64,000 bases of DNA from Chitinophaga pinensis (GTDB lineage: Bacteria; Bacteroidota; Bacteroidia; NS11-12g; UBA955). The DNA is taken from NCBI GenBank assembly GCA_945877575.1, contig CAMDUE010000003.1, positions 88,174-152,173 on the forward strand, written 5' to 3'. Under the pieces are notes generated by a model that saw only the letters and a program-made list of their open reading frames with translations, made no database searches and had not been told where the DNA came from. Both the position numbers and the translations under genes were made by a program. The stretch's first letter is position 1. Each line of letters starts with the position of its first letter. This document shows positions 4,703 to 53,949 of the stretch, piece after piece.

Positions 4703-4723
4703 AATTACGGAAAATCCTTAATT
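4703..4723. promoter_or_regulatory. dyad motif AATTACGGA-AAA-TCCtTAATT, with one mismatch, about 60 nt upstream of the 3372..4640 gene
   Basis: The sequence was read directly. It is a near-identical copy of the perfect dyad at 46112..46132. Confidence 0.45.
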
Positions 4724-38414: not shown

Positions 38415-40978
38415 TATTTAAATGTAAAGAAGGCTCTAAATGGCATTACAACTATATGCACCAAGAATGAAAGAGTTTTATTAATGACTGTTGGATTTTT
38501 ATTATTATCGCTTCCATTTGAGTTATAAGCGAGGTATTTAGAATCATAATTATAGTTGTACGCCCCATAGTCATGAAAATAGTAATTCCCTAATGTGTAA
38601 TAGGCACCACTGTAATTTGAGTAAGCCTTTAAATTACCGTATCCATAATCATAACCATAACCATAACCAGCAATACCACCTTTGACCCCGTTTAACAAGC
38701 AGGCGATGTTGTTTGATTTGCTTAATTTCTTGAATGTCAAAGCAATTTCCTTGACTTTATTCAACTCGGAAACACCAAAGCGAACCACAAAAATACTTAA
38801 ATCAGCAAAACGAGAAACCTCAAGAGAGTCACTCACCAAACCTATTGGTGGACAATCAAAAATGATAATATCAAACTTACTTTTTAAGTCATCCATAACT
38901 TCCAACATTCGGTCTGAAGCTAATAGTTCTAGTGGATTTGGCGGGATAGGACCTGAGGAAATAATAGACAAATTTTCATACCCTACATCTTTAATCACTT
39001 GATCAACAGTTATTTGTGAATTTGAAAGCAAATTACTCAGTCCTATTTCACGTTTGGATATGTTGAAGTTCCTACTAATGCCTGGTTTCCGTAAGTCACC
39101 CTCAATAACTAGCGTTTTCTTACCTGAAATAGCATAAACAGCTCCTAAATTTAAACTGCAAAATGACTTACCCTCTGTTGAAATTGAACTGGTAATGAGT
39201 ATGACTTTCGTATTGATACTTTCTTCAGTGATGAATCCTATGTTGGTTCTAATACTTCTGAATTGTTCTGCAACAATATTTCTTGAATTATCTTGTTCAA
39301 TAACCAACGAAGATTTATCAGATGTTTCAGTGTATATGATGGAACCTAAAATTGGAATATTTAATACTTCACGTAATTCACCTACATTATAAACCTTATT
39401 TCTCAAGATGCTTTTGACCACCAAGATTATCGTTACCAAAAGAAATCCAATAAACGTGAAAAGTATTTGTGTAAGTTTTACCTGAGGAACAACTAGTTTC
39501 TCTCCGGTAGTATTTTCTAAAATCCTGACATTAGATAAGGTTCCAGCCATTTGTATTGCCGACTCCTCTCTTTTTTGGAGAAGATATTGATACAGTGAGT
39601 TTAAAACATTTTGTTGCCTCGTTAAATTTAGCAAAGTCCTTTCCTTTTCAGGAATTGACCTAATTAATTTGTTATAATTAGTATTGGTTCCAGACCGGTC
39701 TTGTAAAATTCCTTCTTTTATTTTATATAGATTTTCCAAGGAATTATCTATTAGATTATCTATGGCCGTTCTAACTAAGTTTAACTCCGATTTAACAACA
39801 CCTAACTGATTGTTTTTATTTCCCACCAAACTATTAAGCTTGTTGTAGTTTAATTTCAATTCATTAAATCGATCAAAATAGGGTTGTATCTGCCTCATAT
39901 TACCCTCGCTCAGACCCGTTAATCCTGGGGCAATTTGATCTGATGCAACACCACGCAAAATGTAACTTTTGATTTGTTTTAAAACAATTATTTCAAATTC
40001 AAATTCCCAAATTTTATTATCACTCAATCTCATTTTATCTAAGAAATACTCAGACTCTTTAGATAATCTTGAAATATCATTAGTACTTTTAAATACTTCA
40101 ATTCTTCTTTCTATTGTGTCTAAATCTCTTCCCAGAAAATCTAGCCTGCGATCAATAAATTCTACAGTAAATTTCGCTTTTTTCCGTTTCTCAGATTGAG
40201 TGTAGCTTTGATAGCTTTCAACCAGAGAATTCAACATTTTTTCCGAATACCGTGGTGAAACTGATTCTGCAAATAAATGAATAATAGAGCTCCTTTTATC
40301 TTTCTCTATCCTGACATTTTCTAAAAATTGCTTTGCCGCTTTCCTATTGTCTAAAATCTCAATCCAATTGTTGTTCTTGAATTGCATTTTTAAAAACTCA
40401 TCAACAATTTTATCTCCTTTTTTGAAATTATAATTTCGCCGAAAAATTAACTTATTTCCATCAATTTCAGTAATAACTTCATATTTAACTATTTTTCCTT
40501 TTACACGAAGTCTTCCATCATTCAACAGTTTGAAAGCAAACTTTGAATTGGATATTTTATCTTTATTGATTACGTCTATATAAAAAGGCAATCCCTCTAA
40601 AGGTATATTGACTTTTTTCATAACACCTTCTGACTTGATAGTAAAAAAATAACCACATTTCTCTACAGCTCCTTTGATTACTTGAAATCCCTTAATCACT
40701 CCAATTTCATCATCAATGAAGGTAGGAGATTTACCAGCCACCTGTTGCAATATTTGATCACTTGAAGTATTGGACTCATCTTTCAACAAAAGTCCAGTTT
40801 CAGTTTCAAATATCGATTGAGTGTAATTGATTTTTAGGTTACCAAGGAATAGAAATAACAGAATAAAGAATGCATATACCGGCCAAAATGGTAAAAAATC
40901 TCTTAAAACCGTATGATATATTTTTAATGCACTTTTATCGTCACTATTCTGAATATTATTTTGTTGTAATTGATCCAC
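38414..40978 (-). CDS. polysaccharide co-polymerase / tyrosine autokinase (Wzc/EpsB-type, PCP-2a)
   Basis: The Wzz-like periplasmic domain lies between two TM segments. The Walker A is ISTEGKSF, the Walker A' DxD motif is LVIEGDLRKP, and the Walker B is IIIFDCPP. The C-terminal tail is tyrosine-rich (GYGYGYDYGYG...YNYNYDSKY). Confidence 0.8.
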   Translation of the reverse strand: MDQLQQNNIQNSDDKSALKIYHTVLRDFLPFWPVYAFFILLFLFLGNLKINYTQSIFETETGLLLKDESNTSSDQILQQVAGKSPTFIDDEIGVIKGFQVIKGAVEKCGYFFTIKSEGVMKKVNIPLEGLPFYIDVINKDKISNSKFAFKLLNDGRLRVKGKIVKYEVITEIDGNKLIFRRNYNFKKGDKIVDEFLKMQFKNNNWIEILDNRKAAKQFLENVRIEKDKRSSIIHLFAESVSPRYSEKMLNSLVESYQSYTQSEKRKKAKFTVEFIDRRLDFLGRDLDTIERRIEVFKSTNDISRLSKESEYFLDKMRLSDNKIWEFEFEIIVLKQIKSYILRGVASDQIAPGLTGLSEGNMRQIQPYFDRFNELKLNYNKLNSLVGNKNNQLGVVKSELNLVRTAIDNLIDNSLENLYKIKEGILQDRSGTNTNYNKLIRSIPEKERTLLNLTRQQNVLNSLYQYLLQKREESAIQMAGTLSNVRILENTTGEKLVVPQVKLTQILFTFIGFLLVTIILVVKSILRNKVYNVGELREVLNIPILGSIIYTETSDKSSLVIEQDNSRNIVAEQFRSIRTNIGFITEESINTKVILITSSISTEGKSFCSLNLGAVYAISGKKTLVIEGDLRKPGISRNFNISKREIGLSNLLSNSQITVDQVIKDVGYENLSIISSGPIPPNPLELLASDRMLEVMDDLKSKFDIIIFDCPPIGLVSDSLEVSRFADLSIFVVRFGVSELNKVKEIALTFKKLSKSNNIACLLNGVKGGIAGYGYGYDYGYGNLKAYSNYSGAYYTLGNYYFHDYGAYNYNYDSKYLAYNSNGSDNNKNPTVINKTLSFLVHIVVMPFRAFFTFK

Positions 40979-41304: not shown

Positions 41305-42108
41305 TCATCTATCAATAATTGCATCCCAAAGTAGCGATCTCTGTTTCAGCGATTCGATAGAAAATTTTTCAGCTTCTGACCATTTTTGAGCGTCATCGCC
41401 ACAAAGTTGAGCCACCATTTCCAAGGCGAGGTGCGAGTGATGATCGCCATCTACCTCAATATGTCTTTCTATGTAATATTTGAATGTAGATACTTTTTCA
41501 GGGAATTCTTGGTGGATTTCTCTGAGGATTTCAACAAACATATCGGGAATCAAGTCTTCACGTCCGAAGGTAAAAACAGCAGCCTTAATATGAGCAGGTT
41601 GATTGATGGCAACATCAAACGTGAAATTCAAGAATGATTTAACTTTGGGGTGGAGTTCGGCATTTTCTATAGCATTGAAAATATTTTTATCAATGGCTTG
41701 GGACAAAAATGCTTGAATGGTTAGGGTGTCGGCACCCATTTGTTGCATGGCTTTGAGATACAATTCAAAATGCGATATTCTCACTCCGTGTTCGTCTACG
41801 TCAGATTCTTCTCCGAGTACAATTTCATTGATTAGATATCGAGTATCAGCTGTACCAACGGGCCTCCATGGCAATTCAACGCAAGTCAAATCTCTTTGGA
41901 GCGATTTCAACAAGCTCATAAAGTCCCAAACCGCATACACATGCTTTTCTGAGAACTGAATCAATCCATTGAGGTCATTGATACTCTTATACACCGGATG
42001 TTGAAGTAACAATTCTCTCTGCGCTTGGATGTTTTTCTGTAGGGATTCAATGAAATTATTTGACATGATGCTGCAAAAATACGCTGAAATGTCAGTGAAT
42101 TTTGTCAA
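41305..42108 (-). CDS. DUF3050-family (heme-oxygenase-like fold) protein
   Basis: I recognise the overall pattern (HVYAVWDFMSLLKSL...HSHLALEM) from memory. Confidence 0.45.
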   Translation of the reverse strand: MTKFTDISAYFCSIMSNNFIESLQKNIQAQRELLLQHPVYKSINDLNGLIQFSEKHVYAVWDFMSLLKSLQRDLTCVELPWRPVGTADTRYLINEIVLGEESDVDEHGVRISHFELYLKAMQQMGADTLTIQAFLSQAIDKNIFNAIENAELHPKVKSFLNFTFDVAINQPAHIKAAVFTFGREDLIPDMFVEILREIHQEFPEKVSTFKYYIERHIEVDGDHHSHLALEMVAQLCGDDAQKWSEAEKFSIESLKQRSLLWDAIIDR

Positions 42109-42139: not shown

Positions 42140-42919
42140 ATGAAAAATAAGTGGAATGTGATTCTTGCCGCCATCATTCTTGGGGGATGCTCATTGTTTT
42201 CAAATGGCATCAACGTATTTCCTGTCACTACAGATTTAGCCTTCGGAGCTCAAGTTGCCGCTGATATCGATAAAGAAAACAGCAAAAACTTGCTTGACAG
42301 TGCATCTAACAGCGTTATTTACCGTTACTTATATTCCATAAGAGACAGTATCCTTAGAAACAATGAAATTGAGCACGAAAACAAATTCCCTTGGCGAATC
42401 AGAATCATTAAAGACGATCAAACCCTGAACGCCTTTTGCACCCCAGGAGGATACATTTATTTCTACACCGGAATATTGAAATATTTACAATCAGAAGACG
42501 AATTAGCCGGTGTCATGGGGCACGAAATGGCACATGCCGCTAAACGCCACAGCACCGACGCTTTAACCCGTCAATACGGTGTCACCATCTTTACCCAGTT
42601 GTTAATTGACACACAATACCATGATCTGACCCAAATTGCTGCAGGCCTAGCGCTGTTGAAATACGGCCGAAAAGATGAATTGCAATCCGATGAATTTAGT
42701 GTTCGTTGGTTGTATAACACCAGTTATAATCCCACAGGTGCTGCAGGATTTTTTGAGAGAATGAACGCCTCAGGCGGACAAAGAGTGCCTGCATTTTTAA
42801 GTACTCACCCCGATCCAGGCAAAAGAGTAGAAAAAATTCATGCCTTGCATAAAAAATTGGGTGGAAAATCAGGGAATAAATACGAAGAGCGCTACAAACA
42901 GATGATTAAGTACATCTAA
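42140..42919 (+). CDS. M48-family zinc metallopeptidase lipoprotein
   Basis: The lipobox is LGGC. The zinc-binding motif is HEMAHAAKRH (HExxH). Confidence 0.75.
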   Translation: MKNKWNVILAAIILGGCSLFSNGINVFPVTTDLAFGAQVAADIDKENSKNLLDSASNSVIYRYLYSIRDSILRNNEIEHENKFPWRIRIIKDDQTLNAFCTPGGYIYFYTGILKYLQSEDELAGVMGHEMAHAAKRHSTDALTRQYGVTIFTQLLIDTQYHDLTQIAAGLALLKYGRKDELQSDEFSVRWLYNTSYNPTGAAGFFERMNASGGQRVPAFLSTHPDPGKRVEKIHALHKKLGGKSGNKYEERYKQMIKYI

Positions 42920-45225
42920 TATATAGCCAATCCCATCAAATACCGCAAAGCCGTTTTTACCACTCGTCCAGCAAATTCATAGTGCGATTCAGATCCTCCG
43001 GAAACGCAGTACAAGGAGAATCTCGTTAATATCAAGCTTTTTAAAGAATAGCGCGCCGTTTTTACATATTCCAACCAATCTTCATCTAAAAGAGCTGCAT
43101 GTTTCTTTGCGTGTCCCTCGAAATCATCATACGGCAAGTCTAGAAAGCTCAAAAACTCCATGATGTCGCGGTGAGGATAGTCGTTCATGCATAATTCCCA
43201 ATCGTAAATCACGGGCTCACCGTTGTTCAATATCATGATATTCCGTGGATTAAAATCATTGTGAATGACACAAATACGCGAACTAAGTGTAGAGAACTCA
43301 AGTTCCAATTGACTCAATTGTAACGATTCCAAACAACGAAAATCAACTTCGTCAAACTGAATATCTTTGCGAACGGAATCCAAAAATAATGCATTCAATC
43401 GTTGATAGAATTTCATTGCCTTCCAAGGCCGTTGCAGTGGAAACTCATTTGCAATTTCAGCTTTGAATTGAAGATTATGGAAATCATGAATCGCTTCAAT
43501 ACAAGCATCTATATCACCCAAACTCCATTTTTCAGGCTCATTCTCGCAGTTCAGAATCTTTGTTTCTGTTGGATGTATGAACCGTTGAAGAAGCAAATAA
43601 ATCTCTCGCTTTTCATCTTGTTTGATGCCAAATAATTTGGGAAAATACGGATATTCAACCTCGTTAAGCCATTGAGCCATTGAAACTTCTTTCAGATGGC
43701 ATTGATCAAATTCTAGTTTCTTTCTGTCTTCCAAAATGGCAGCAGCTAAGGCAGAATCAATTCCACTGGCTACCAAATGCAACCCTTTATAAACTTCTTC
43801 ACTTGTGGGTCTAGACTTCAATAGCACACGATCAACTTCGTTGATCTTCAACAAATAATAGCCTTGCAACTTCGAAGTGACCCGAGTGGTCAGCTGGGTA
43901 ATGATACCGTTATCAAAATACTCGTGACTTTGCCACTCAATTTTTTCTACTTTAGATTTGTAGGAATCATACAAGCAGGCCCTCAGAAAATCAACATCCA
44001 CTTCCGATTTCAACAACCAATCAACTGGTTTATTTCGTCCTAACTTTTGATGCGCTCGAGCAAATTCTCCACTAACAATGGCTCCAAAAGTAGAAATCTC
44101 TAACCCTAGAGCCGCACCCGCAATGATCCTAGAAAAACGCTGTAATTGACCACGGCCATGACAACCCATCATCTGAAGTGCTTCTTTTTGCTTGGGAAGA
44201 TGAGTACCACCGCCCACGGTTCCAACCACTAAATTGGGAAACGTAATTTCAAAACAAAGTCCTTTTTGCGTCTTTTCAATATTCAAAAACGCCGTTGATG
44301 ATTCATGCAAACACGCTGCATCTTGCCCAGTAGCCAAAAATATCGAAGCCAAGGCATTAGCTACATTGATATTGTAACCCACCATACCTTCTTTTTCAGC
44401 AGCCTCTTTCGAAGGATGATAGAATTTGAAAAATTGATTTGAATCTACCCTTAATACATCTTTCAACACTTCGTCTGAAACCTCTACCGACGCAGATACT
44501 TTGCAACCGCGGCCATGATCAATGTTGTACTGAGATATTTTCTTATCGGCGGCGCCATTTCCTTCAATGACATAATCTAAATGCACATGGGGATACAGTT
44601 CCCCAAACTCTGCCGCAATATGCAACAAAGCATGCCAAGTGCAAGTAGTTGTCATATTTTGACCCGCTGCATCACCCGTTTGGTAATAAAACTTGGTATT
44701 TAAATTAGATCCAAATACATCTGTTTTCATTTCGAGTAGCTTGGCGTGATTGCTGTAAGACTCAGCCACTGATTTAATTTCTTCAAAATGGGAGTTTAAA
44801 TATTCTTCAAGCAATTTCGCATTTTGATTTGAATCCAAAATAAACAGTGGCGCGCGCAACATTCGTTGATAATGAAAGTCAGAATCAAATCCTCCTGAAA
44901 GAGCGATTACGCGAGCTCCGCGATTCATGGAATACACCAATGCACCTTCAAGGGTTGCGGCGGGTAAAAAAACAACTTCAGCTGGAAATTCTGATAATTC
45001 TTTATATGCAATGGGACCAACCAATCCAACGGGAATTTCAACGCTACCAACAAAAGATTCGATGTTGTGATTGATTTCATCAAGGGGAAGCTGATGGCTG
45101 AAAAGTCGAGACGAGTCTAATTGCAAGCCCTTCAAAAAATCTTGCCTCAACAAAACCGCTTGGCTTGTGTTAAACCCTCTTCCTGGTACTTTTGGTGCTC
45201 TATCAAAAAAATGCCCCTCTGACAT
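42916..45225 (-). CDS. fusion protein: HMG-CoA-reductase-like domain (N-terminal ~400 aa) plus an APH/choline-kinase-type phosphotransferase domain (C-terminal ~350 aa)
   Basis: The N-terminal half has HMGR class I-like blocks (...GSVEIPVGLVGP..., DAAGQNM, GTVGGGT). The C-terminal half has the APH catalytic loop IHNDFNPRNIMI and the DWE metal-binding block IYDWELCMND. Confidence 0.65.
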   Translation of the reverse strand: MSEGHFFDRAPKVPGRGFNTSQAVLLRQDFLKGLQLDSSRLFSHQLPLDEINHNIESFVGSVEIPVGLVGPIAYKELSEFPAEVVFLPAATLEGALVYSMNRGARVIALSGGFDSDFHYQRMLRAPLFILDSNQNAKLLEEYLNSHFEEIKSVAESYSNHAKLLEMKTDVFGSNLNTKFYYQTGDAAGQNMTTTCTWHALLHIAAEFGELYPHVHLDYVIEGNGAADKKISQYNIDHGRGCKVSASVEVSDEVLKDVLRVDSNQFFKFYHPSKEAAEKEGMVGYNINVANALASIFLATGQDAACLHESSTAFLNIEKTQKGLCFEITFPNLVVGTVGGGTHLPKQKEALQMMGCHGRGQLQRFSRIIAGAALGLEISTFGAIVSGEFARAHQKLGRNKPVDWLLKSEVDVDFLRACLYDSYKSKVEKIEWQSHEYFDNGIITQLTTRVTSKLQGYYLLKINEVDRVLLKSRPTSEEVYKGLHLVASGIDSALAAAILEDRKKLEFDQCHLKEVSMAQWLNEVEYPYFPKLFGIKQDEKREIYLLLQRFIHPTETKILNCENEPEKWSLGDIDACIEAIHDFHNLQFKAEIANEFPLQRPWKAMKFYQRLNALFLDSVRKDIQFDEVDFRCLESLQLSQLELEFSTLSSRICVIHNDFNPRNIMILNNGEPVIYDWELCMNDYPHRDIMEFLSFLDLPYDDFEGHAKKHAALLDEDWLEYVKTARYSLKSLILTRFSLYCVSGGSESHYEFAGRVVKTALRYLMGLAIY

Positions 45226-45287
45226 ATCAAAGGGGCAAATATATCGTGTTAACAGACAATTGATTTACGATTTATCACAAATCGCAA

Positions 45288-45305
45288 ATTTGAAATTACG
45301 GATTT
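45288..45305. promoter_or_regulatory. half-site of the AATTACGGA dyad motif (as TCCGTAATTTCAAA on the minus strand), about 65 nt upstream of the HMGR-kinase gene start
   Basis: aaatccgtaatt(t)caaa occurs both here, on the minus strand, and at 46121..46136. Confidence 0.35.
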
Positions 45306-45317
45306 ACGCAACTACCC

Positions 45318-46060
45318 TTACCTCGGATGTCCAAGGGCACTTTCTATCAGGAAGCGTCTCATCAAATGGTTGTTGGTTGCGGTACCTGTCCAAGCTCCGA
45401 CACCAAAATAATTTCCACCAGCTGTAAATGAACCAATGTATGAAGTACCAATGAAGGTTCCATCAATTTTAATATCCAGGTTCCATCGCCACCATTTGTG
45501 ACGCTTCCTGCGTACAAATTAGCAGCAATATGCAAAGGCTTGCTCCAATCAATGGTTTGTTGCCAATAGATCTTGCCGTTTTGATTTGCTGAATTGGGTG
45601 TAAGTTGAACGTATCCCGTAGTATTTGAAGCGTTGCCAACAAAAGTAGCTGCTGGAGATAATGATGTGGGATTTCCGAGTGTCCAGTTCCATTCCATTAC
45701 ACCAGGGCTCGTGGTTTGATCTTCAAATCTAACCCATGCAGTTCCGTTCCAATAGTAATACCCAGGAGTAACGTTGTTAGGATAAGACCCTGCAGTGGCA
45801 GTATTGTATACCAACATGGATGTAGTTGGCGAGGTTAACGGTGAAGCAGAAGTCAAAGAAGTAAGTGCCACTCTCGACAACAAAACACCCTTTGTGCTCG
45901 ATGTAACATCCAACTGTGCTGAACTAGAAGGCGTTGTAGTACCAATTCCGACTTGTGCTTTCACAGTGCAAAATGGCGTTGTGATCAAGACAAATAAGGA
46001 GAAGAATCTAAGCGGAGACATAGTATTTAAGTTGATAAATTTACAAACAAAATAGTTCAC
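45318..46060 (-). pseudogene. disrupted paralog of the L-type lectin-like secreted protein family (an internal deletion of about 80 codons with a frameshift)
   Basis: The N-terminal ~190 aa (to NGGDGTW) align with the 55329 and 56260 paralogs. After a frame change the C-terminal homology continues in another frame (...DIKIDGTFIGTSYIGSFTAGGNYFGVGAWTGTATNNHLMRRFLIESALGHPR) and ends at the TAA at 45318..45320. Confidence 0.6.
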
Positions 46061-46111
46061 ATAAAACCGATTATTTACATCACTTTTTTTTCTATATTTA
46101 CACTACCCTGA

Positions 46112-46132
46112 AATTACGGAAAATCCGTAATT
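46112..46132. promoter_or_regulatory. perfect dyad AATTACGGA-AAA-TCCGTAATT, about 65 nt upstream of the UbiA operon start. A candidate operator.
   Basis: The 9 bp inverted-repeat arms were read directly. A related copy lies at 4703..4723 and a half-site at 45288..45305. Confidence 0.5.
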
Positions 46133-46198
46133 CAAAGTTGTGTATTTGCGTTTATCCTTTTTGTACAATAACCAAAACTGCATAGATTCGCCGCCCTA

Positions 46199-47146
46199 TT
46201 GAAAACCCAATTCAACCCAATGAACCAAAATCAACCCCTATACTCCCGTTTTTGGATATATCTTACCGAACGATTTCCACTTCACTCACACGGAATTTTA
46301 ATTGCCGCATTTAGTTTTAGCGCCATTGGTTACTCCCGATTGTGCCAACAACTGCCTCATTTTATTGACCTCAAGGCCTTCTTAGTTTGCATCTTCAATA
46401 CCGTTTCCTTGTTTTTTCTTCTTCGTGTATTCGATGAACACAAAGACGCTGAAGACGATGCAAAATTCAGATCGGAATTACCCGTTCCACGCGGACTTAT
46501 TTCGCTCAAAGAACTACGCAACATTGGCTTGACCATATTTGTTTTTCAACTGATCATCAGCGCTGTAACCTTTCCTAAAATGCTTCCGCTTTATGCGGTG
46601 GTTATTGCTTATTTATTGCTCATGGGAAAAGAATTTTTCATGGCTGATTGGCTTAAAAAACACCAATTCTGGTACGTCACCAGTCACATGATCATCATTC
46701 CACTCATTGACATTTATGCCTCTGGTTACGATTGGCATTTAAATCAACGTCCTGCGCCGTTCGGATTGATCTACTTTTTTGGTGTCTCCTTCTTTAATGG
46801 AATTGTGCTAGAGCTCGGCCGGAAAATCCGTGCCCCCCACGATGAAAAACCAGGAGTTCAGACGTATTCCAGCATGTTGGGATTGTATAAATCAGTCTAT
46901 CTATGGATAGCAGTCCTTTTTGCAACTCTAGTTCTCGCTTTGCTTGCCGCAGAATTTGCAAAACTTCCAACGGGCGTTTTTACCGCTCTTTGTGTTTACT
47001 TTGTTTTGACCTTGTTGGCCGCCGTTTGGCACCTAAAAAAGCAAAGTTCTGCTTCTGCTAAAATCATTGAAATTGCCAGCGGAGCTTGGACCATACTCAT
47101 GTATTTAACCCTTGGCGGTATTCTAACCATTACTCACATTTTATGA
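46199..47146 (+). CDS. UbiA-family prenyl/alkyl-transferase (integral membrane)
   Basis: The Asp-rich motif is RVFDEHKDAEDD (NDxxDxxxD-like). There are about 8 TM helices in 315 aa. Confidence 0.7.
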   Translation: MKTQFNPMNQNQPLYSRFWIYLTERFPLHSHGILIAAFSFSAIGYSRLCQQLPHFIDLKAFLVCIFNTVSLFFLLRVFDEHKDAEDDAKFRSELPVPRGLISLKELRNIGLTIFVFQLIISAVTFPKMLPLYAVVIAYLLLMGKEFFMADWLKKHQFWYVTSHMIIIPLIDIYASGYDWHLNQRPAPFGLIYFFGVSFFNGIVLELGRKIRAPHDEKPGVQTYSSMLGLYKSVYLWIAVLFATLVLALLAAEFAKLPTGVFTALCVYFVLTLLAAVWHLKKQSSASAKIIEIASGAWTILMYLTLGGILTITHIL

Positions 47147-49620
47147 GTAAATTCATCGATACAAATAGCCCGTTTGACATCCAGTTTAATCAAATGTATA
47201 CGGGTGGCAAAGGATTTCACCTATTGCAACTTGCTCGAAACGGATTTCAAGTTCCTGAATTCATCATTTATAACGCGACTGAAACATCCATCAAAACACC
47301 CTTGAATCCAGATGAAATTCAACTCATCAAAGAATCTCTGGGCTTCCCTCATAGGGTATCGATAAGATCTTCGGCTCTTGGTGAGGATGGATTTTCACAC
47401 AGTTTTGCTGGACAATTTCTCACTGAGCTCAATGTTTCTTGGGAAACCCTTAACGATAGCATTGAACGCGTTTGGAACTCCTTGAACCGCACCGAAATCG
47501 AAACGTATTGCAAAGAACACGGAATCAATGTCCCAAATAAAATGTCCATCATCATCCAAACCATGCTCCAACCTGACTTTTCAGGCGTTGCATTTGGTGT
47601 AAATCCGGTGAATGGACACCGCAACGAAATGATCATTACGGCAGCCCCGGGACTTGGAGAAGCACTTGTGAGTGGGGCCGTAAATGGCGATACTTTTGTT
47701 GTGAAGGATGACTCAGTTGAATGTATTTCAGGCGAAGCCGCATCCCCAGAAACACTAAGCACTGAACAGGTAGTTGCCGTGGGCGAACAACTCAAACGGC
47801 TCAAAAAACTATACGGAAAACCCCAAGACATTGAATTTTCTTGGGTCAAAAATGAGTTGTTTTTACTTCAAACAAGACCAGTAACTTCCTTAGATAAATT
47901 GGCTGATACCGGGGCAGAGATGATTCTCTGGGACAATTCAAACATCATTGAATCTTACCCCGGCGTAACCACCCCTTTGACGTTTAGTTTCATCATCAAA
48001 ATGTATGAATCCGTCTATCTGCAACTTTGCAGATTGTTGGGAGTAAGCGAAAAAGACTTACGTGAAAATGCCGCCGTATTTTCCAATATGCTCGGCCTAA
48101 TTGAAGGAAGGGTTTACTACAATTTATTGTCGTGGTATAAAGCGTTGGCGCTGCTTCCTGGATATCATTTGAACGCAGAGTTCATGGAAAAAATGATGGG
48201 GGTTAAAGAACGATTTGAGTTGAAAAATCGGCCTCAAAGAAGTAAGCTAATTGAGCGCTTAAGAGTTTTGGTCATGGTAAAATCCATGATATCCAATCTC
48301 AGGGCATTGCCTAAAATGCGAATCAACTTTCAAAGTGATTTCCAAAAAGAATTAGACCGGTTCAATGCCATAGCTTTGGATAAAAAGAACGTTGTTGAAC
48401 TGATGGAACTCATGATTGATTTCCAAAGCACGCTTCTTAAAAAATGGAAAGCACCCTTGGTGAACGATTTTTACGCCATGATTTACTTCGGCTTACTTCA
48501 AAAAACTGCCGAAAAATATGGTTTACCTCCAGGAATACACAACGATCTTTTATGCGGGGCTAGCGATATTATTTCTACCGAACCCATAAAGCGCATGAAG
48601 GAAATCAGTTCAGCCATTGTACAATTTCACACCCTTGAAAATGCATTTCTCATTGAGTCGCCAGAACAAATTCTGAGGTTGATCAATGAACCTAATTATG
48701 AACCGGTGCAAAAACTCTTCGATACCTATTTGAATCAATTTGGCGACCGAACTGTGGGAGAGTTAAAATTAGAAACCATCACCTATAAACAAGAACCTAC
48801 CGCTTTGATTCAATTGATCCAATCGTACATAAGACAAGGCTTTGGGCATTCTGAAAATGTGAATGAACGAGTGGATCTCAAAATGCGTAAAAACGCAGAA
48901 GAAAAAGTAGGTCACATTTTGAAAGGTAAGCCTTTCAAAAAATGGTTCTTCCACTATTTACTGAAGCGCACTCGCATATTGGTCAGTGCCAGAGAAAACC
49001 TCCGATTTGAACGAACCCGAGGATTTGGAAAAGTACGCGAAATATTTTTGGCTATAGGCAATCAATTCTTCAGTGAAGGCATTTTGGAGCATCCCAGAGA
49101 TATTTTTTACCTTACCCAAGAGGAAATCTTCGACTTCATCAAAGGCACATCGGTAACCCCAGAAATTTCAGAATTGGTATCCTTCCGAAAGGAAAAATTT
49201 GCAAAATACGAAACCACTACCACATCTGAACGCATCAGAACTTACGGAGCAGTTTACCACGGGAACTCATTCTCACAAGAAAAATCAACATCCCTTGACG
49301 GAGAAGATCTGAAAGGCATTGGTTGTTGCCCAGGAATCGTAAAAGCAAAGGTGCGTATAGTTTTAGACCCCAAAGAGGTGAGCGATTTAAACGGTGACAT
49401 ATTGGTAACCGCCTCAACTGACCCCGGCTGGGTAACACTATTCCCCACGGCTTCAGCCATCATTGTAGAACGAGGTTCACTGCTCTCGCACAGTGCCATC
49501 GTATCTCGCGAATTAGGCAAACCCTGCATTGTAGGTGTGACCCATCTGTTATCAAAAATCAAAACCGGCGACTGGGTAGAGATGGATGGTTCAACAGGAC
49601 AAATCAAAATAATCAAATAA
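47143..49620 (+). CDS. PEP-synthase-family dikinase with rifampin-phosphotransferase-like architecture (ATP-grasp N-domain, central domain, C-terminal swivelling phospho-His domain; no PEP/pyruvate TIM barrel)
   Basis: The N-terminal PPDK_N block is YTGGKGFHLLQL. The C-terminal mobile domain is ...GDILVTASTDPGWV...SLLSHSAIVSRELGKPCIVG (catalytic His), and the protein ends straight after it. I moved the start to MSKFIDTN (ATGA overlap with the UbiA stop). Confidence 0.7.
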   Translation: MSKFIDTNSPFDIQFNQMYTGGKGFHLLQLARNGFQVPEFIIYNATETSIKTPLNPDEIQLIKESLGFPHRVSIRSSALGEDGFSHSFAGQFLTELNVSWETLNDSIERVWNSLNRTEIETYCKEHGINVPNKMSIIIQTMLQPDFSGVAFGVNPVNGHRNEMIITAAPGLGEALVSGAVNGDTFVVKDDSVECISGEAASPETLSTEQVVAVGEQLKRLKKLYGKPQDIEFSWVKNELFLLQTRPVTSLDKLADTGAEMILWDNSNIIESYPGVTTPLTFSFIIKMYESVYLQLCRLLGVSEKDLRENAAVFSNMLGLIEGRVYYNLLSWYKALALLPGYHLNAEFMEKMMGVKERFELKNRPQRSKLIERLRVLVMVKSMISNLRALPKMRINFQSDFQKELDRFNAIALDKKNVVELMELMIDFQSTLLKKWKAPLVNDFYAMIYFGLLQKTAEKYGLPPGIHNDLLCGASDIISTEPIKRMKEISSAIVQFHTLENAFLIESPEQILRLINEPNYEPVQKLFDTYLNQFGDRTVGELKLETITYKQEPTALIQLIQSYIRQGFGHSENVNERVDLKMRKNAEEKVGHILKGKPFKKWFFHYLLKRTRILVSARENLRFERTRGFGKVREIFLAIGNQFFSEGILEHPRDIFYLTQEEIFDFIKGTSVTPEISELVSFRKEKFAKYETTTTSERIRTYGAVYHGNSFSQEKSTSLDGEDLKGIGCCPGIVKAKVRIVLDPKEVSDLNGDILVTASTDPGWVTLFPTASAIIVERGSLLSHSAIVSRELGKPCIVGVTHLLSKIKTGDWVEMDGSTGQIKIIK

Positions 49621-49625
49621 ATTGA

Positions 49626-51539
49626 ATGGCGGAGCAATCTGAACTCAATATATCTCAAAAAGCCTCGTTTGATTTCATCCGATATGCCACGGTTTGGGAA
49701 GACCCCGTGGTACTTCTTCAGGCGCTCAACATCGAAAAAAACGACCAGGTTTTGAGCATCGCTTCTGCCGGAGATAATTGCTTCAGCTTATTGATGGCAG
49801 ACCCAAAATTGATTGTTGCAGCCGACATCAATCCCGTTCAATTGCATCTCACGGAGCTAAAAATCAAAGCCATTCAGGAGCTTTCTTACCAGGAAGTTCT
49901 TGCTTTTTTGGGATATTCATCTGAGTCAAATCGAGCGGAATTATTCAATAAAATCGAGCCCCACCTTTCCAAAGAAGCTGCTCATTATTTTAGAAATTCC
50001 CTTCCCACTTGGGAAAAAACAGGCATCATACATCAAGGAAAATTCGAAAAATACTTCCAAATTTTCTCCAGAAAAGTACTGCCCCTGATTCACAGTTACA
50101 AAACCATTGAACAGTTGCTTACACCCAAATCGGAACATGAGCAACGCCAATTTTTCCTCCGACATTGGAACACCTGGCGTTGGCGATGGTTGTTCAAATT
50201 ATTCTTCAGTCGTACCGTCATGGGTTGGTTGGGCCGCGATCCAGAATTCCTAAAACAGGTAGAAATTCCAGTTTCAGAATTCATCTTAAGGCAAGCAGAA
50301 ATACACCTCAGCTCCAGTCGGGCCGCACAAAATCCGTTTTTAAGATACAACCTAACAGGCAGTTTTGGAACCCTTTTACCGCACTACCTTCAACCCGAAA
50401 ACTTCGAATTCATCAAAGACAGAATTCACCGAATTTCACTCTTTCACGGCTTCGCCGAGGATGCAATAGCTCAATACGGACATTTTCACGCCATGAACCT
50501 GAGCAACATCTTCGAGTACATGAATGTTCAAGAATTTGAGCAAACAGCTCAAAAATTAGTAAGTGGCCTATTCCCTGGCGGACGATTAGCCTATTGGAAT
50601 CTCATGGTAAAACGAAGGTGCTCAGAGGTAGTTGCTGACTGCACAGAACAGACCAATCTCATGTCCGAGCTTCGGCTCAAAGACGATGGCTACTTTTACA
50701 GCACCATTGTAACGGATGTTTGTCTTAAATCTTTTGACTTTGGAATTTATAGGCTCAATTCAGAAACACTTGCAGTAGGTTACCCATCGAAAGAGGGAAG
50801 CAATTTAAATTTAACCGAGCAACTCAAAGCCCTTACACTATGGGCCAAAAATGAGGGATTCAAACACCTAATAGGCCCAATGAATGGCAGCACTTGGGAA
50901 AATTATCGTTTAAAAACCTCTTCCCATCGCATTTTTTTGGGGGATCTCTCGTATCAGCCACAAGTTGTAGAAAGCTTTGAAAGTGCAGGATTTAAAACCA
51001 TTGAGAGATATGTGAGTGCCCTGATGCATGAAATTCCAGGTAGTATTTCCAGATTGGATGAGCGAAAGAGCCAACTAGAGAAACAAGGAATCAAATTCCG
51101 ACACTTAAACATGGAGTCTTGGGAACAAGAACTTCAAAAAATCCACGAGCTCAGCCTCGTGGCCTTCCAAAATAACCCTTTCTACACCCCCATTCTTTGG
51201 AAAGACTTCTTGTTGAAGTACAACGAAATCAAACAATTCATTGACCCGCAATGGGTCCTTTTAGCAGAATTGGAACAAAATTTGCAGGGGTTTGTCTTTG
51301 CTTACTTAGACCTTGAATATAAATGCATCATCATGAAAACTGTTGCTCGAAAACCTGACTTTAGACTTGGTGGATTGGGATTGGTGATGACCGATATTTT
51401 ACAACAAAAAGCCAAAAAAGAAGGCATTTTTCAAGTCGTTCACTCATTCATGCATCAAGACGCTGCATCTCTTAGATGCTCTGAATCTTTAGAAGCTGAA
51501 ATTATTTCTGAATACCATCTGTACGGAATAGAACTTTAA
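49626..51539 (+). CDS. fusion protein: DUF3419 (BtaA-like SAM 3-amino-3-carboxypropyl transferase) N-domain plus a GNAT-like acyltransferase C-domain
   Basis: The N-terminal ~400 aa carry a ...YATVWEDPVVLL... block typical of BtaA/DUF3419. The C-terminal ~230 aa carry a GNAT motif-A-like FRLGGLGLVM (R-x-x-G-x-G). Confidence 0.5.
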   Translation: MAEQSELNISQKASFDFIRYATVWEDPVVLLQALNIEKNDQVLSIASAGDNCFSLLMADPKLIVAADINPVQLHLTELKIKAIQELSYQEVLAFLGYSSESNRAELFNKIEPHLSKEAAHYFRNSLPTWEKTGIIHQGKFEKYFQIFSRKVLPLIHSYKTIEQLLTPKSEHEQRQFFLRHWNTWRWRWLFKLFFSRTVMGWLGRDPEFLKQVEIPVSEFILRQAEIHLSSSRAAQNPFLRYNLTGSFGTLLPHYLQPENFEFIKDRIHRISLFHGFAEDAIAQYGHFHAMNLSNIFEYMNVQEFEQTAQKLVSGLFPGGRLAYWNLMVKRRCSEVVADCTEQTNLMSELRLKDDGYFYSTIVTDVCLKSFDFGIYRLNSETLAVGYPSKEGSNLNLTEQLKALTLWAKNEGFKHLIGPMNGSTWENYRLKTSSHRIFLGDLSYQPQVVESFESAGFKTIERYVSALMHEIPGSISRLDERKSQLEKQGIKFRHLNMESWEQELQKIHELSLVAFQNNPFYTPILWKDFLLKYNEIKQFIDPQWVLLAELEQNLQGFVFAYLDLEYKCIIMKTVARKPDFRLGGLGLVMTDILQQKAKKEGIFQVVHSFMHQDAASLRCSESLEAEIISEYHLYGIEL

Positions 51540-51540
51540 A

Positions 51541-53118
51541 ATGTCTAACATCATTCATATCGCAAAAACCCTGAAAAATGGAAACATCATGGAGCATTTC
51601 CATGCTGCCGCGATCATGAATTCAAATCGCCTTGCCATTGCCGATCAGCATTCGCAAGTGACTTTTGATGAATTAAGACATAAAATTGAAAACGCTCATT
51701 CATTATTTATGGAGCGTGGCCTTAAATCCGGCGACCGTGTTTTGGTCTTTGTGCCCATGAGTATTGATTTATACATCAGCGTTTTAGCTTTATTCAAAAT
51801 GGGCTGTACCGCCGTTTTCATTGATGAGTGGGCCAAAATAGACCGTTTAAAAAAGTCATGCCAAATAGCAGATTGTAAAGGATTTATAGGCATTCCCGCT
51901 GCATCTTCTTTGGGATTCTTAATCCAGGAAATTAGAAAAATCCCCGTCCGCATGACCACACGAGAAATTCGACATGCAAAGAAAAGTCATTACCATGATT
52001 TGGCAACTATTGATGGTTCAAACGACACCGCGCTCATCACTTTCACTACGGGCAGCACAGGCACACCCAAAGCGGTAAAACGCAGCCATGAAATTCTCCA
52101 TCAACAGTTTTTGTCCCTCCAAAACACCATACAAACCCGCGATGACACTGTAGATATGCCGGTGTTACCCATTGTTTTATTGATTAATTTAGGGTTAGGG
52201 GTCAGCAGCGTAATCGTAAAATGGAGCAGCAAAAAGCCTTACGCACTGAAGGCAAAAAAGATCATCAAAACCATACAAAAATTTCGGGTCAATCGCATCA
52301 TTGCTTCCCCTTATTTCATTGATCAACTTTGCATTAAGAGCCTTACCGAAAACAATTCTCCAAAATTAAGTTCGGTGCGCGAAGTCTTCAGCGGAGGAGC
52401 GCCTGTTTTCCCATCTGAAGCCAAATTATGGCTCACTGCATTTCCAGACTCTAAAGTTGAAATTGTATACGGAAGCACCGAGGCCGAACCTATTTCAAGC
52501 ATCAATGCACGGAAACTCATGCAAACCACCGACTCCACTTTTGAGGATGGGCTTTTTGTGGGAAGAGTAGAATCTTGTACACAAGTTAAAATTCTAAATC
52601 TAAAAACTCAGGAAACTCTCAAACCCATAGAAATCGGGGAGATTGCGGTTGCAGGAAATCATGTTGTAAAAGAGTATTTTGGTCCTGATTCTGCTGCTCA
52701 AATGGCTGAATCAAAGCTTCTCATTGATGGACATTTATTCCACAAAACGGGAGATTCCGGCTACATTGACCACCAAGGAAACCTTCATTTATTGGGCCGC
52801 TGCCAACAAATCATTGAGTGGCAGGGACAACCGTTGTACCCATTTCTGATGGAATATCAACTGCGCCACATTCCTGGCGTAATTATGGGTACCGTCTTAA
52901 AAATCAACGATAAACTCGTTTACTTCTTAGAGTTAAAACGCTGTAAATCCTTCCAGCATCTAGCATACCCAAAACTGGGTTGCTTCTCGCCCATTACCGA
53001 GGATTTGCGTTCCTTGGGACTGCCTGACGGCGACATTCGACTGGTCAAGATACCAAGAGATCCCAGACATTTCAGCAAGATTGATTATAGAGTTTTGCAA
53101 AAAATGCAAAAAATGTAA
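51541..53118 (+). CDS. AMP-forming acyl/aryl-CoA (or carrier-protein) ligase
   Basis: The AMP-binding motif is TFTTGSTGTPKAV, with ...YGSTE... The start is 2 nt after the upstream stop. Confidence 0.75.
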   Translation: MSNIIHIAKTLKNGNIMEHFHAAAIMNSNRLAIADQHSQVTFDELRHKIENAHSLFMERGLKSGDRVLVFVPMSIDLYISVLALFKMGCTAVFIDEWAKIDRLKKSCQIADCKGFIGIPAASSLGFLIQEIRKIPVRMTTREIRHAKKSHYHDLATIDGSNDTALITFTTGSTGTPKAVKRSHEILHQQFLSLQNTIQTRDDTVDMPVLPIVLLINLGLGVSSVIVKWSSKKPYALKAKKIIKTIQKFRVNRIIASPYFIDQLCIKSLTENNSPKLSSVREVFSGGAPVFPSEAKLWLTAFPDSKVEIVYGSTEAEPISSINARKLMQTTDSTFEDGLFVGRVESCTQVKILNLKTQETLKPIEIGEIAVAGNHVVKEYFGPDSAAQMAESKLLIDGHLFHKTGDSGYIDHQGNLHLLGRCQQIIEWQGQPLYPFLMEYQLRHIPGVIMGTVLKINDKLVYFLELKRCKSFQHLAYPKLGCFSPITEDLRSLGLPDGDIRLVKIPRDPRHFSKIDYRVLQKMQKM

Positions 53119-53164: not shown

Positions 53165-53566
53165 ATGAATAAAATCAGGGTAAACATTACCATTAACAAA
53201 GAAATACACGAGAAGGCCAAATTTTTTTCATTAAAGGAAGGAAAAAGCCTGAGTGAAAATATCGAAGATTTACTCACTCAATATTATTGGCAAAAAGCAG
53301 AGGGTATTGTATCTGAGCCTACTTCTCATTACAATTCCACATTGGAGCTGAATGGAATGTCTCCATTGCAAAATTCAATGTCCGATATTTTCAATCAATT
53401 ACACCCAGAACAGCAGATTGAACTGTTCCATTATGGGGAATACTTATTATCTAAGAATCCTTCTCCCACAAAAAAAATAAGTCTGCACGGAATTTTCAGA
53501 GACCAAATCATGATATCTGAAGATTTCGATGAACCTCTCGACATTTTCAAAGATTACATGCCATGA
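53165..53566 (+). CDS. type II antitoxin (RHH-like N-domain plus DUF2281-like C-terminal motif)
   Basis: The C-terminal DFDEPLDIFKDY motif is present. There is a 4 nt overlap (ATGA) with the downstream PIN gene. Confidence 0.55.
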   Translation: MNKIRVNITINKEIHEKAKFFSLKEGKSLSENIEDLLTQYYWQKAEGIVSEPTSHYNSTLELNGMSPLQNSMSDIFNQLHPEQQIELFHYGEYLLSKNPSPTKKISLHGIFRDQIMISEDFDEPLDIFKDYMP

Positions 53567-53949
53567 ATCACTTGATTGATACTCATACATTATTGTGGTA
53601 TTTGAATGCAGACAAAAAACTGTCAAAAAATGCTTTACATACCATCGAAGACCCCAATAACCGAATTTTCATCAGTCAAGCAACCCTCATTGAAATGGCC
53701 ATTAAAGTAAGCATGGGGAAATTAAAATTACCTTGCGAATGGGATGAATTATTTTTTCAGTTCAATAAAATAGGCTGGTCTATTTTGCCCTTTCGAAACG
53801 TCGATTTTGCAAGGTTGAGTAAACTACCCTTCCACCACGGTGACCCATTCGATAGATTGATGGCATGTCAGTGTTTAAATCAGAAACTTGACATTATTAG
53901 CAAGGACCCAATCTTTGAAAAACACAAAATAAAACGGATTTGGAATTAG
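53563..53949 (+). CDS. PIN-domain ribonuclease toxin (VapC-like)
   Basis: The N-terminus MNHLIDTHTLLWY (catalytic Asp) and the 128 aa length fit. Confidence 0.7.
   Translation: MNHLIDTHTLLWYLNADKKLSKNALHTIEDPNNRIFISQATLIEMAIKVSMGKLKLPCEWDELFFQFNKIGWSILPFRNVDFARLSKLPFHHGDPFDRLMACQCLNQKLDIISKDPIFEKHKIKRIWN

Follow-up and report, generated by a model that had tools for sequence, protein, structure and literature searches.

The 64,000-nucleotide stretch of contig CAMDUE010000003.1 (assembly GCA_945877575.1, Chitinophaga pinensis) analysed here, in the following called the window, carries a cluster of five enzyme genes. It encodes a 3-hydroxy-3-methylglutaryl-CoA reductase (HMGR)-like domain fused to an APH-type kinase, a UbiA-like membrane transferase, a dikinase related to rifampin phosphotransferases (RPH), a DUF3419 protein and an AMP-forming ligase. 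We consider it probable, with somewhat better than even confidence, that the locus represents one form of a modular and widespread pathway which makes a lipid of the membrane or envelope. The five enzymes had been named in an earlier reading of the sequence, below called the first-pass annotation, and the map of open reading frames (ORFs) reproduces their coordinates exactly:

42916-45225, minus strand: fusion of an HMGR-like domain and an APH-type kinase, 769 aa (Pfam).
46199-47146, plus strand: divergent membrane transferase of the UbiA superfamily, 315 aa (Pfam UbiA).
47086-49620, plus strand, extent of the ORF: dikinase of RPH architecture (Pfam PPDK_N and PEP-utilizers).
49626-51539, plus strand: fusion of DUF3419 and a tandem GNAT acyltransferase, 637 aa (DUF3419 by Pfam, GNAT by fold).
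51541-53118, plus strand: AMP-forming acyl ligase of the ANL family, 525 aa (Pfam AMP-binding).

The four plus-strand genes form a tight operon with overlapping stop and start codons. The UbiA-like gene probably begins at the ATG at 46220, and the true start of the dikinase is likely the ATG at 47143, which overlaps the UbiA stop codon (ATGA). Not one of the five proteins reaches an equivalog cut-off of NCBIfam.

Both halves of the HMGR-kinase protein are recognised by Pfam above its cut-offs: HMG-CoA_red at aa 27-397 (nt 44035-45147; E 5e-91, 305.9 bits, cut-off 27) and APH at aa 512-717 (nt 43075-43692; E 1.5e-12, 48.2 bits, cut-off 23.2), the kinase domain giving a weak Choline_kinase match as well. 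The closest solved structure of the reductase domain is the archaeal class I HMGR 6HR7 (E 1e-65), and a sequence search of the PDB with the kinase domain returned nothing useful. Across 20 homologues, the catalytic Glu, Lys, Asp and C-terminal His of the reductase are intact, with IESxxG, DKK, GQD and AH(E/Q)KLGR invariant, and the same is true of the kinase motifs HNDFNPRN (H655-N-D657...N662, the HxDxxxxN loop) and D675-W-E677 (the metal-binding DxE). The fused clade carries Asn where other HMGRs, including the human enzyme (H752), have His, the only one of the HMG-binding positions compared that is specific to this clade. An attempt to read substrate specificity from the HMG-binding residues was abandoned: the positions corresponding to human S684 and K735 are variable in bona fide HMGRs too and therefore do not discriminate the substrate.

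The UbiA match (E 8.5e-12, 45.3 bits) exceeds the Pfam gathering cut-off of 34.2, and the first Asp-rich motif, D72-E-x-K-D76-xxx-D80 (pattern R..DE.KD...D), is invariant in 26 of 26 cluster-linked relatives. The second motif (DxxxD) is atypical, the conserved pattern E198-xx-R-K...E209 standing in its place, and a PDB search with the protein found no sequence-level relative. The dikinase consists of an N-terminal ATP-grasp domain (PPDK_N, aa 33-216, E 3e-44), a middle domain and a C-terminal swivel domain (PEP-utilizers, aa 769-838, E 8e-24) with its His in LSHSAIVSRE, and its closest solved structures are the Listeria rifampin phosphotransferases 5HV1 and 5FBS (E 2e-54). It scores 241.6 against the RPH equivalog NF041857 (cut-off 999), and its best NCBIfam model of any kind is NF004881 (666, cut-off 883).

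In the fourth protein, DUF3419 spans aa 13-326 (E 6e-71, 240 bits, cut-off 28.2); a TYW2-type match of this domain was non-significant (E 0.008). Its C-terminal half (approximately aa 375-637) reaches only 15.7 bits with Acetyltransf_1 in Pfam (cut-off 20.7, E 0.018). An AlphaFold2 model of this half (mean pLDDT 80.3, pTM 0.77) was matched by Foldseek to VipF, MshD, MAB_4324 and glucosamine N-acetyltransferase (E 7e-12 to 3e-9), which confirms a tandem-GNAT fold. This half has stand-alone homologues of about 335 aa, some of them with a GNAT annotation. The ligase shows an AMP-binding match (E 2e-44, 152 bits) and the A3 motif TGSTGTPKA, and its nearest NCBIfam model is PRK09274, the fatty acid CoA ligase family (303 bits, cut-off 478). 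The domain assignments of the first-pass annotation were thus borne out for the HMGR-APH fusion, for a UbiA-family enzyme with an intact Asp-rich motif, for the RPH architecture of a PEP (phosphoenolpyruvate)-synthase-family enzyme, for DUF3419 and for the AMP-forming ligase, while the GNAT assignment fell short by Pfam and is carried by the modelled fold.

In a comparative set of 83 loci from more than 10 phyla, all ORFs were clustered and the recurrent families annotated (L083 and L084 were added later). A core of a dedicated HMGR lineage, fused or unfused, a divergent UbiA-like enzyme and an RPH-like dikinase recurs in this set, and one of two add-on modules usually lies beside it. Module A comprises a CarS-like protein (PF01864) and a CDP-alcohol phosphatidyltransferase, sometimes with a membrane methyltransferase of the isoprenylcysteine carboxyl methyltransferase/phosphatidylethanolamine methyltransferase (ICMT/PEMT) type; the CarS-like protein of Kordia matches the CDP-archaeol synthase model at 5e-14. 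Module B comprises DUF3419, a short CTP_transf_1 protein, a tandem GNAT and an AMP-ligase. Its carriers are Dyadobacter, Sphingobacterium, Saprospiraceae, Verrucomicrobiota, Longimicrobiaceae and Thermoanaerobaculia, and in all of these an unfused HMGR gene immediately precedes the module. The window and L001, an orthologous cluster of a Bacteroidia metagenome-assembled genome (MAG) with 56-81% protein identity to the window, combine the core with module B, in a form that has lost CTP_transf_1 and has DUF3419 and GNAT merged into a single gene. In Dyadobacter-type clusters DUF3419 and the tandem GNAT are separate genes with the CTP_transf_1 gene between them. The AMP-ligase always adjoins the tandem GNAT in the relatives. 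The first-pass annotation had proposed a synteny check across Bacteroidetes genomes; the same genes are syntenic in many phyla, beyond what chance neighbourhood would give.

At least one partner is present in 37 of 41 loci with a fused HMGR-kinase, namely the RPH-like dikinase (26 loci), CarS/CDP-alcohol transferase (22), UbiA (19), DUF3419/GNAT (13), AMP-ligase (11), an MMPL transporter (8), a LolA-like protein (6) and ICMT/PEMT (4). The full set HMGR-UbiA-RPH-DUF3419-CTP_transf_1-GNAT-ligase is present in twelve loci whose HMGR is unfused; these belong to Bacteroidota, Verrucomicrobiota, Gemmatimonadota and Acidobacteriota. A short CTP_transf_1 protein and the APH fusion exclude each other (0/41 versus 11/30 loci). 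CTP_transf_1 is the family of CdsA and also includes the CTP-dependent dolichol and phytol kinases; equivalent roles of the two proteins on a lipophilic alcohol would fit this exclusion.

The gene order varies around this core. The Kordia operon reads HMGR-APH, CarS-like protein, CDP-OH_P_transf; in the nearest relatives of the window (48-50% identity) the same three genes are followed by ICMT/PEMT and lie convergent with UbiA and RPH. Gammaproteobacterial versions combine UbiA, HMGR-APH, RPH, GNAT, the ligase and the CarS-CDP-alcohol transferase pair with an MMPL transporter and a LolA-like protein, and the Oleispira-type clusters likewise add MMPL and LolA-like genes. Another variant contains a methyltransferase, a PlsC-type acyltransferase and a fatty-acid desaturase. 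Five loci (L005, L007, L008, L010, L013) encode HMGR-APH, DUF454, an RPH-like dikinase and an NAD-dependent epimerase together with two thymidylate-kinase-like P-loop kinases and an NTP_transf_5 nucleotidyltransferase, a gene content that hints at a nucleotide activation of the HMGR-kinase product.

The HMGR-kinase fusion itself is common, with 1,645 matches among clusters at 90% identity, nearly all of them bearing no annotation beyond 'phosphotransferase' or 'HMG-CoA reductase'. In a scan of species-representative genomes, full-length fusions were found in Bacteroidota, Gammaproteobacteria, Bdellovibrionota, Rickettsiales, Planctomycetota, Desulfobacterota, Myxococcota, Entotheonella, Paenibacillus and Streptomyces; Kordia and Flavobacterium gilvum also carry the HMGR-APH fusion. 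Around the Streptomyces and Entotheonella fusions, the Pfam annotation of the neighbouring genes was uninformative. The kinase domain belongs to a small family, for which 1.84 billion proteins yielded 294 representatives at 50% identity; its members are nearly always fused to HMGR and form the C-terminal part of proteins that measure 750-930 aa. Fusion forms of about 900 aa from gammaproteobacteria, Firmicutes and Desulfobacterota (L018, L022, L025, L032, L033, L039, L041, L043, L078) have a conserved N-terminal extension of about 125 aa, whose PilZ-like appearance by eye found no Pfam support even at E<=10. An apparent DUF3419-HMGR-APH triple fusion in L024 was rejected as an artefact, the DUF3419 match lying in a different frame from the long ORF.

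In a neighbour-joining tree of HMGR domains, the fused and the cluster-linked unfused clades group together and apart from the HMGRs that lie in no such cluster. The role of this lineage is illuminated by two MAGs of Riflebacteria, in which a single ORF encodes AMP-binding, PP-binding (DSL serine) and HMG-CoA_red domains (L048:8099-11134 and L080:8126-11140), with genes for a formyltransferase, UbiA, an RPH-like dikinase, DUF3419 and LolA-like proteins downstream. The adenylation (A) domain is nearest to long-chain fatty-acid-CoA ligases, and the protein has, judged by its domains, a carboxylic-acid-reductase architecture in which the reductase is of the HMGR fold. These adenylation-thiolation (A-T)-HMGR fusions suggest thioesters other than HMG-CoA as substrates. 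They are the best evidence in support of the HMGR lineage reducing a dedicated activated acid to an alcohol, and they give independent support to the first-pass annotation, which had postulated the reduction of an activated acid by the HMGR-like domain.

An ordinary HMGR of the mevalonate pathway, whose fused kinase replaces mevalonate kinase and which merely lies beside unrelated genes, would be the most conventional explanation. The strong HMG-CoA_red match agrees with it, and many Bacteroidota use the mevalonate pathway (PMC6107057). However, the same partners recur in more than 10 phyla, including gammaproteobacteria, for the majority of which the methylerythritol phosphate (MEP) route is expected (PMC6107057), and the protein belongs to a clade apart from the cluster-less HMGRs and, at 245.9 bits, stays below the cut-off of the TIGR00533 equivalog (441.8). 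No HMG-CoA synthase, GHMP kinase or decarboxylase was found within about 6 kb, that is, among the annotated window ORFs at 36-58 kb, nor in the recurrent annotated families of the 83 loci, whose neighbours were not annotated exhaustively. Bacteroidetes, moreover, have their own GHMP mevalonate and phosphomevalonate kinases, according to a passage of PMC6107057 citing Hayakawa 2017. Because of these kinases, and because the cluster occurs in gammaproteobacteria with their mostly expected MEP route, a housekeeping role of the HMGR is unlikely, and we regard this explanation as highly improbable. The statement of the first-pass annotation that the locus is not the canonical mevalonate pathway is supported.

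The recurring partners of membrane-lipid type and the frequent MMPL and LolA-like exporters point instead to a membrane-lipid pathway. In the scheme that we propose on the basis of gene content, the HMGR-fold enzyme would carry out the four-electron reduction of an activated carboxylate, bound as the thioester of CoA or pantetheine, to a primary alcohol, which the fused APH-type kinase would phosphorylate. The RPH-like dikinase, converting ATP to AMP and inorganic phosphate via a phospho-His, would perform a second phosphoryl transfer, and the UbiA-like membrane enzyme would couple a diphosphate-activated hydrocarbon group to the growing molecule. The head group in the window would be built by a phosphorus-free module: the BtaA-like DUF3419 domain would add the 3-amino-3-carboxypropyl group of S-adenosylmethionine (SAM), and the fused tandem GNAT would N-acylate the new amine with an acid activated by the AMP-ligase. 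Sister clusters would make a phospho head group via the CarS-like protein and the CDP-alcohol phosphatidyltransferase, sometimes with a PEMT/ICMT methyltransferase. Among the relatives, the partners of DUF3419 are a tandem GNAT and an AMP-ligase in the Bacteroidota, whereas in the Riflebacteria its partner is a formyltransferase. Because its partner is thus an N-acylating system or a formyltransferase, an amine-bearing and then capped head group is supported, a pattern that also fits the earlier proposal of a DUF3419-installed amine that is subsequently N-acylated.

The first-pass annotation had gone further and drawn a linear route, in which the ligase activates the acid, HMGR reduces it to the alcohol, APH and then RPH convert this to an alkyl diphosphate, UbiA transfers the alkyl group to an acceptor and DUF3419-GNAT builds an N-acyl-homoserine head group, resulting in an ether amino lipid. 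The A-T-HMGR fusions support its reduction step, the near-constant adjacency of the UbiA and RPH genes in the relatives fits its diphosphate step, and the pairing of DUF3419 with N-acyl or N-formyl transferases fits its final step. It also parallels phytol salvage, in which an alcohol is converted to the phosphate and the diphosphate and then transferred by a UbiA-family enzyme (general knowledge). On the other hand, the AMP-ligase travels with GNAT and not with HMGR in the relatives, and primary saturated alkyl diphosphates are poor UbiA donors. The commonest HMGR-APH partners, the CarS-like protein and the CDP-alcohol transferase, need a retained monophosphate, which this route discards. The CarS-like, CTP_transf_1 and CDP-alcohol transferase partners thus argue that the kinase phosphate is often kept, against the earlier claim that it leaves as diphosphate during the UbiA transfer. 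We judge this linear route unlikely as it was drawn.

A retained phosphate is accommodated by a logic resembling that of archaeal lipids. HMGR-APH would then make a small phosphorylated backbone or linker, such as 5-phosphomevalonate or the phosphate of a related hydroxy acid, to which UbiA adds an ordinary prenyl chain, with RPH supplying or recycling the prenyl diphosphate. The kept phosphate would be CDP-activated by the CarS-like protein and the CDP-alcohol transferase in the relatives, or the molecule decorated by DUF3419-GNAT in the window. The order HMGR-APH, CarS-like protein, CDP-OH_P_transf mirrors that of digeranylgeranylglyceryl phosphate synthase (DGGGPS), CarS and CDP-alcohol transferase, and the retained HMG-binding and catalytic residues as well as the weak Choline_kinase match of the kinase domain agree with such a backbone. 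The presence of an ICMT-type carboxyl methyltransferase in several clusters would be in keeping with a prenylated molecule that bears a free carboxylate. Nevertheless, the fatty-acid-type adenylation domain of the A-T-HMGR fusion points away from HMG-CoA, the only free hydroxyl group of such a mevalonate backbone is tertiary, and no UbiA lies near the Kordia operons. This possibility appears to us unlikely, if slightly less so than the linear route.

A soluble prenylated natural product is a further alternative, with HMGR boosting the mevalonate supply, UbiA prenylating a core, the RPH-like protein acting as an ATP-dependent condensing enzyme of the PigC type and DUF3419, GNAT and the ligase serving as tailoring enzymes. 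The PigC and RedH models do score about 250-258 bits on the dikinase, far below their NCBIfam cut-offs, and meroterpenoid clusters often contain a UbiA enzyme (general knowledge). No polyketide synthase, non-ribosomal peptide synthetase or terpene cyclase was seen among the annotated neighbour families of the window and its relatives, an annotation that was not exhaustive. The recurring partners are instead phospholipid-type membrane enzymes and MMPL/LolA lipid exporters, and the very broad phyletic spread is atypical of a specialised metabolite. We consider this alternative very unlikely.

Several points weigh against the preferred reading of a modular membrane- or envelope-lipid pathway. The 64-kb window contains no CarS-like, CTP_transf_1 or CDP-alcohol transferase gene, as searched by tblastn with the proteins of the relatives, and no MMPL gene; the lipid argument is therefore borrowed from the relatives, and many of their loci come from MAGs. 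The HMGR keeps most HMG-binding residues and could for this reason simply make mevalonate, while the tree that separates its lineage carries no support values. A DUF3419 domain is in itself no proof of aminocarboxypropyl transfer. The donors that UbiA enzymes usually require are allylic or anomeric diphosphates, and we know of no RPH-type enzyme that makes a diphosphate. While the identities of the domains, their intact catalytic motifs, the conservation of synteny and the separateness of the HMGR lineage are shown by the data, all substrates, the order of the steps and the product are what we infer.

A bolder form of the lipid reading would be a previously unseen class of membrane lipid, formed either from an acid-derived unit or from a non-glycerol, phosphorylated backbone that a UbiA enzyme prenylates, and bearing interchangeable head groups, which would be of the phospho type (CarS/CDP-alcohol) or phosphorus-free (BtaA-like/N-acyl). 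In the acid-derived case, the HMGR-fold reductase, its fused kinase and the RPH dikinase would be a new route to an alkyl or prenyl (di)phosphate. We hold this form to be possible, but a good deal short of probable. If true, archaeal-style assembly logic would operate widely in bacteria.

The following candidate regulatory features belong to the two transcription units:

46112-46132: perfect dyad AATTACGGA-AAA-TCCGTAATT, located 5' of the UbiA operon at a distance of about 70-90 nt.
45262-45312: upstream region of the HMGR-kinase gene, with the half-site TGAAATTACGGA (45291-45302) and a different, imperfect dyad TTTACGATTTATCACAAATCGCAAA.
45212-45237, minus strand: terminator-like hairpin with an 11-bp stem followed by U7, the loop holding the ATG of the HMGR-kinase gene.

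The dyad at 46112-46132 is a candidate operator. The first-pass annotation had described a dyad operator shared by both units; the 12-mer TGAAATTACGGA is indeed common to both sides, with an exact match at 46109-46120, but the perfect dyad occurs on the UbiA side only and the term was overstated. L001 has a closely similar copy of the dyad in the corresponding position upstream of UbiA and a TCCGTAATT half-site upstream of the HMGR-kinase orthologue. As the motif is thus present at both corresponding promoters of the L001 cluster, a shared regulator is supported, and common control of both units is plausible from the motif distribution. A third near-copy, ATTACGGAAAATCCTTAAT with one mismatch, lies at 4704-4722, approximately 65-85 nt upstream of an ORF of 422 aa (3372-4640, minus strand) that has no Pfam or PDB match and may belong to the same regulon. 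The hairpin could be the terminator of the upstream ORF or an attenuator. The 176-nt leader of the HMGR-kinase gene folds with z = -3.3, and L001 has a different hairpin with a T-run directly 5' of the HMGR-kinase start codon (approximately 9949-9983). No Rfam family scored above its gathering score in either regulatory region.

Three further genes stand next to or within the cluster:

41305-42108, minus strand: DUF3050 gene, flanking the HMGR-kinase gene.
42140-42919, plus strand: M48 peptidase gene, flanking the HMGR-kinase gene.
45362-46060, minus strand: lectin-like secreted ORF of 232 aa between the two units (weak Lectin_L-type match in Pfam).

Owing to the last of these, the two divergent units do not lie back to back around one shared region, as the first-pass annotation had it. 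The lectin-like ORF has a degenerate-looking C-terminus and a paralogue at 55329-56213 (plus strand), likewise secreted and with a weak legume-lectin-type match. It is found at the corresponding position in none of the other loci, L001 having a different small ORF there, and is probably not part of the pathway. The DUF3050 and M48 genes are conserved near HMGR-kinase in L001 and not in the other loci and therefore probably stand outside the pathway as well. A VapB-like antitoxin and a PIN-domain toxin are encoded directly 3' of the AMP-ligase (53165-53949), and the pair occupies the same place in L001. The window also includes a GH65 phosphorylase (1062-3368) and a protein sorted by the type IX secretion system (4726-6264), which fits Bacteroidota. 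A low-GC stretch from about 8000 to 42000 (GC 0.29-0.34; the cluster has about 0.40), at the end of which lies a Wzc-like GNVR/AAA_31 gene (38414-40978), is probably a locus for polysaccharide synthesis. A horizontal transfer of the cluster was considered and dropped: GC content gives it no foreign mark, and the low-GC region is the neighbouring polysaccharide locus.

In agreement with the first-pass annotation, which knew of no described pathway with this gene set, full-text literature searches returned no description of it, although subscription-only papers could be missed. The lipocone paper mentions only an HMGR and a GHMP kinase next to Skillet proteins. The further impression that the fusions look new holds roughly for DUF3419-GNAT, which is rare and was found only in the window, in L001 and in the partial MAG protein P0121, but not for HMGR-APH with its many database matches, whose function is nonetheless undescribed. 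The locus would be a lipid biosynthetic cluster that is built from known folds and, going by the NCBIfam cut-offs, holds no orthologue of a characterised enzyme. That its chemistry is new in kind seems to us a real possibility, though less likely than not.

If the lipid reading is true, a lipid pathway present in more than 10 bacterial phyla has gone unnoticed so far, its carriers including Bacteroidota, Gammaproteobacteria, Bdellovibrionota, Verrucomicrobiota, Acidobacteriota, Gemmatimonadota, Riflebacteria, Firmicutes and Actinobacteria. HMGR would then be a general thioester-to-alcohol reductase, a dikinase of the antibiotic-resistance type would act in biosynthesis and a BtaA-like enzyme would function outside betaine lipids. 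This would bear on the 'unidentified aminolipids and phospholipids' of polar-lipid profiles and on the reach of archaeal-style lipid enzymes (UbiA, CarS, CDP-alcohol transferases) in bacteria, and a new annotation would be needed for hundreds of genes that currently go under 'phosphotransferase' or 'phosphoenolpyruvate synthase'. As Dyadobacter, Sphingobacterium, Kordia and Flavobacterium gilvum are culturable carriers, the question is directly testable.

Compared with known systems, the cluster shares with class I HMGR and the mevalonate pathway the fold, the catalytic residues and the sequence of reduction and phosphorylation. In contrast to that pathway and its GHMP kinases, the window uses kinases of the APH and PEP-synthase/RPH types, its HMGR lineage is separate and marked by the His-to-Asn change, and relatives fuse the reductase to adenylation and carrier domains. 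The archaeal phospholipid pathway consists of DGGGP synthase (a UbiA-family enzyme), CarS and CDP-alcohol phosphatidyltransferases, and relatives of the cluster encode a UbiA-like enzyme, a CarS-like protein and a CDP-alcohol transferase side by side. However, there is no geranylgeranylglyceryl phosphate (GGGP) synthase or glycerol-1-phosphate (G1P) dehydrogenase, their place being taken by the HMGR-kinase; of the enzymes shared with that pathway, the window itself encodes only the UbiA-like one, and the sequences remain far below the equivalog cut-offs.

An exchange of phospholipid for betaine lipid is known, and the swap between modules A and B mirrors it. With betaine-lipid synthesis (BtaA/BtaB, BTA1) the window protein has DUF3419 in common, which would give a phosphorus-free amino-acid head group; a homologue of betaine-lipid synthase has been annotated as DUF3419 (PMC10685587). 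The window operon differs in having no BtaB-type N-methyltransferase gene, nor any other gene for a methyltransferase. The fusion of DUF3419 to a tandem GNAT and its pairing with an AMP-ligase suggest N-acylation instead of N-methylation, and the lipid acceptor is likely one other than diacylglycerol.

The dikinase shares its domain order and catalytic His with rifampin phosphotransferase and the PigC/RedH ligases, but it is encoded in a biosynthetic operon beside UbiA and not in a setting of resistance or prodiginine synthesis. Carboxylic acid reductases and the fatty acyl reductases of ether-lipid synthesis (A-T-reductase enzymes, myxobacterial ElbD) follow the same logic of adenylation, thioester formation and reduction for lipid assembly. 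The Riflebacteria relatives have the same A-T-reductase order with a reductase of the HMGR fold instead of the short-chain dehydrogenase/reductase (SDR) fold, whereas the ligase of the window is a separate gene with no carrier domain. Finally, phytol salvage (the CTP-dependent kinase VTE5, VTE6 and UbiA-family phytyltransferases) and the Kennedy pathway (choline kinase, cytidylyltransferase and CDP-alcohol transferase) both lead from an alcohol via its phosphate and an activated form to a membrane transferase, and their families CTP_transf_1, APH/choline kinase and CDP-OH_P_transf all appear in the cluster family. In the cluster described here, the alcohol would in contrast arise by an HMGR-like reduction, and the second kinase is of the RPH type.

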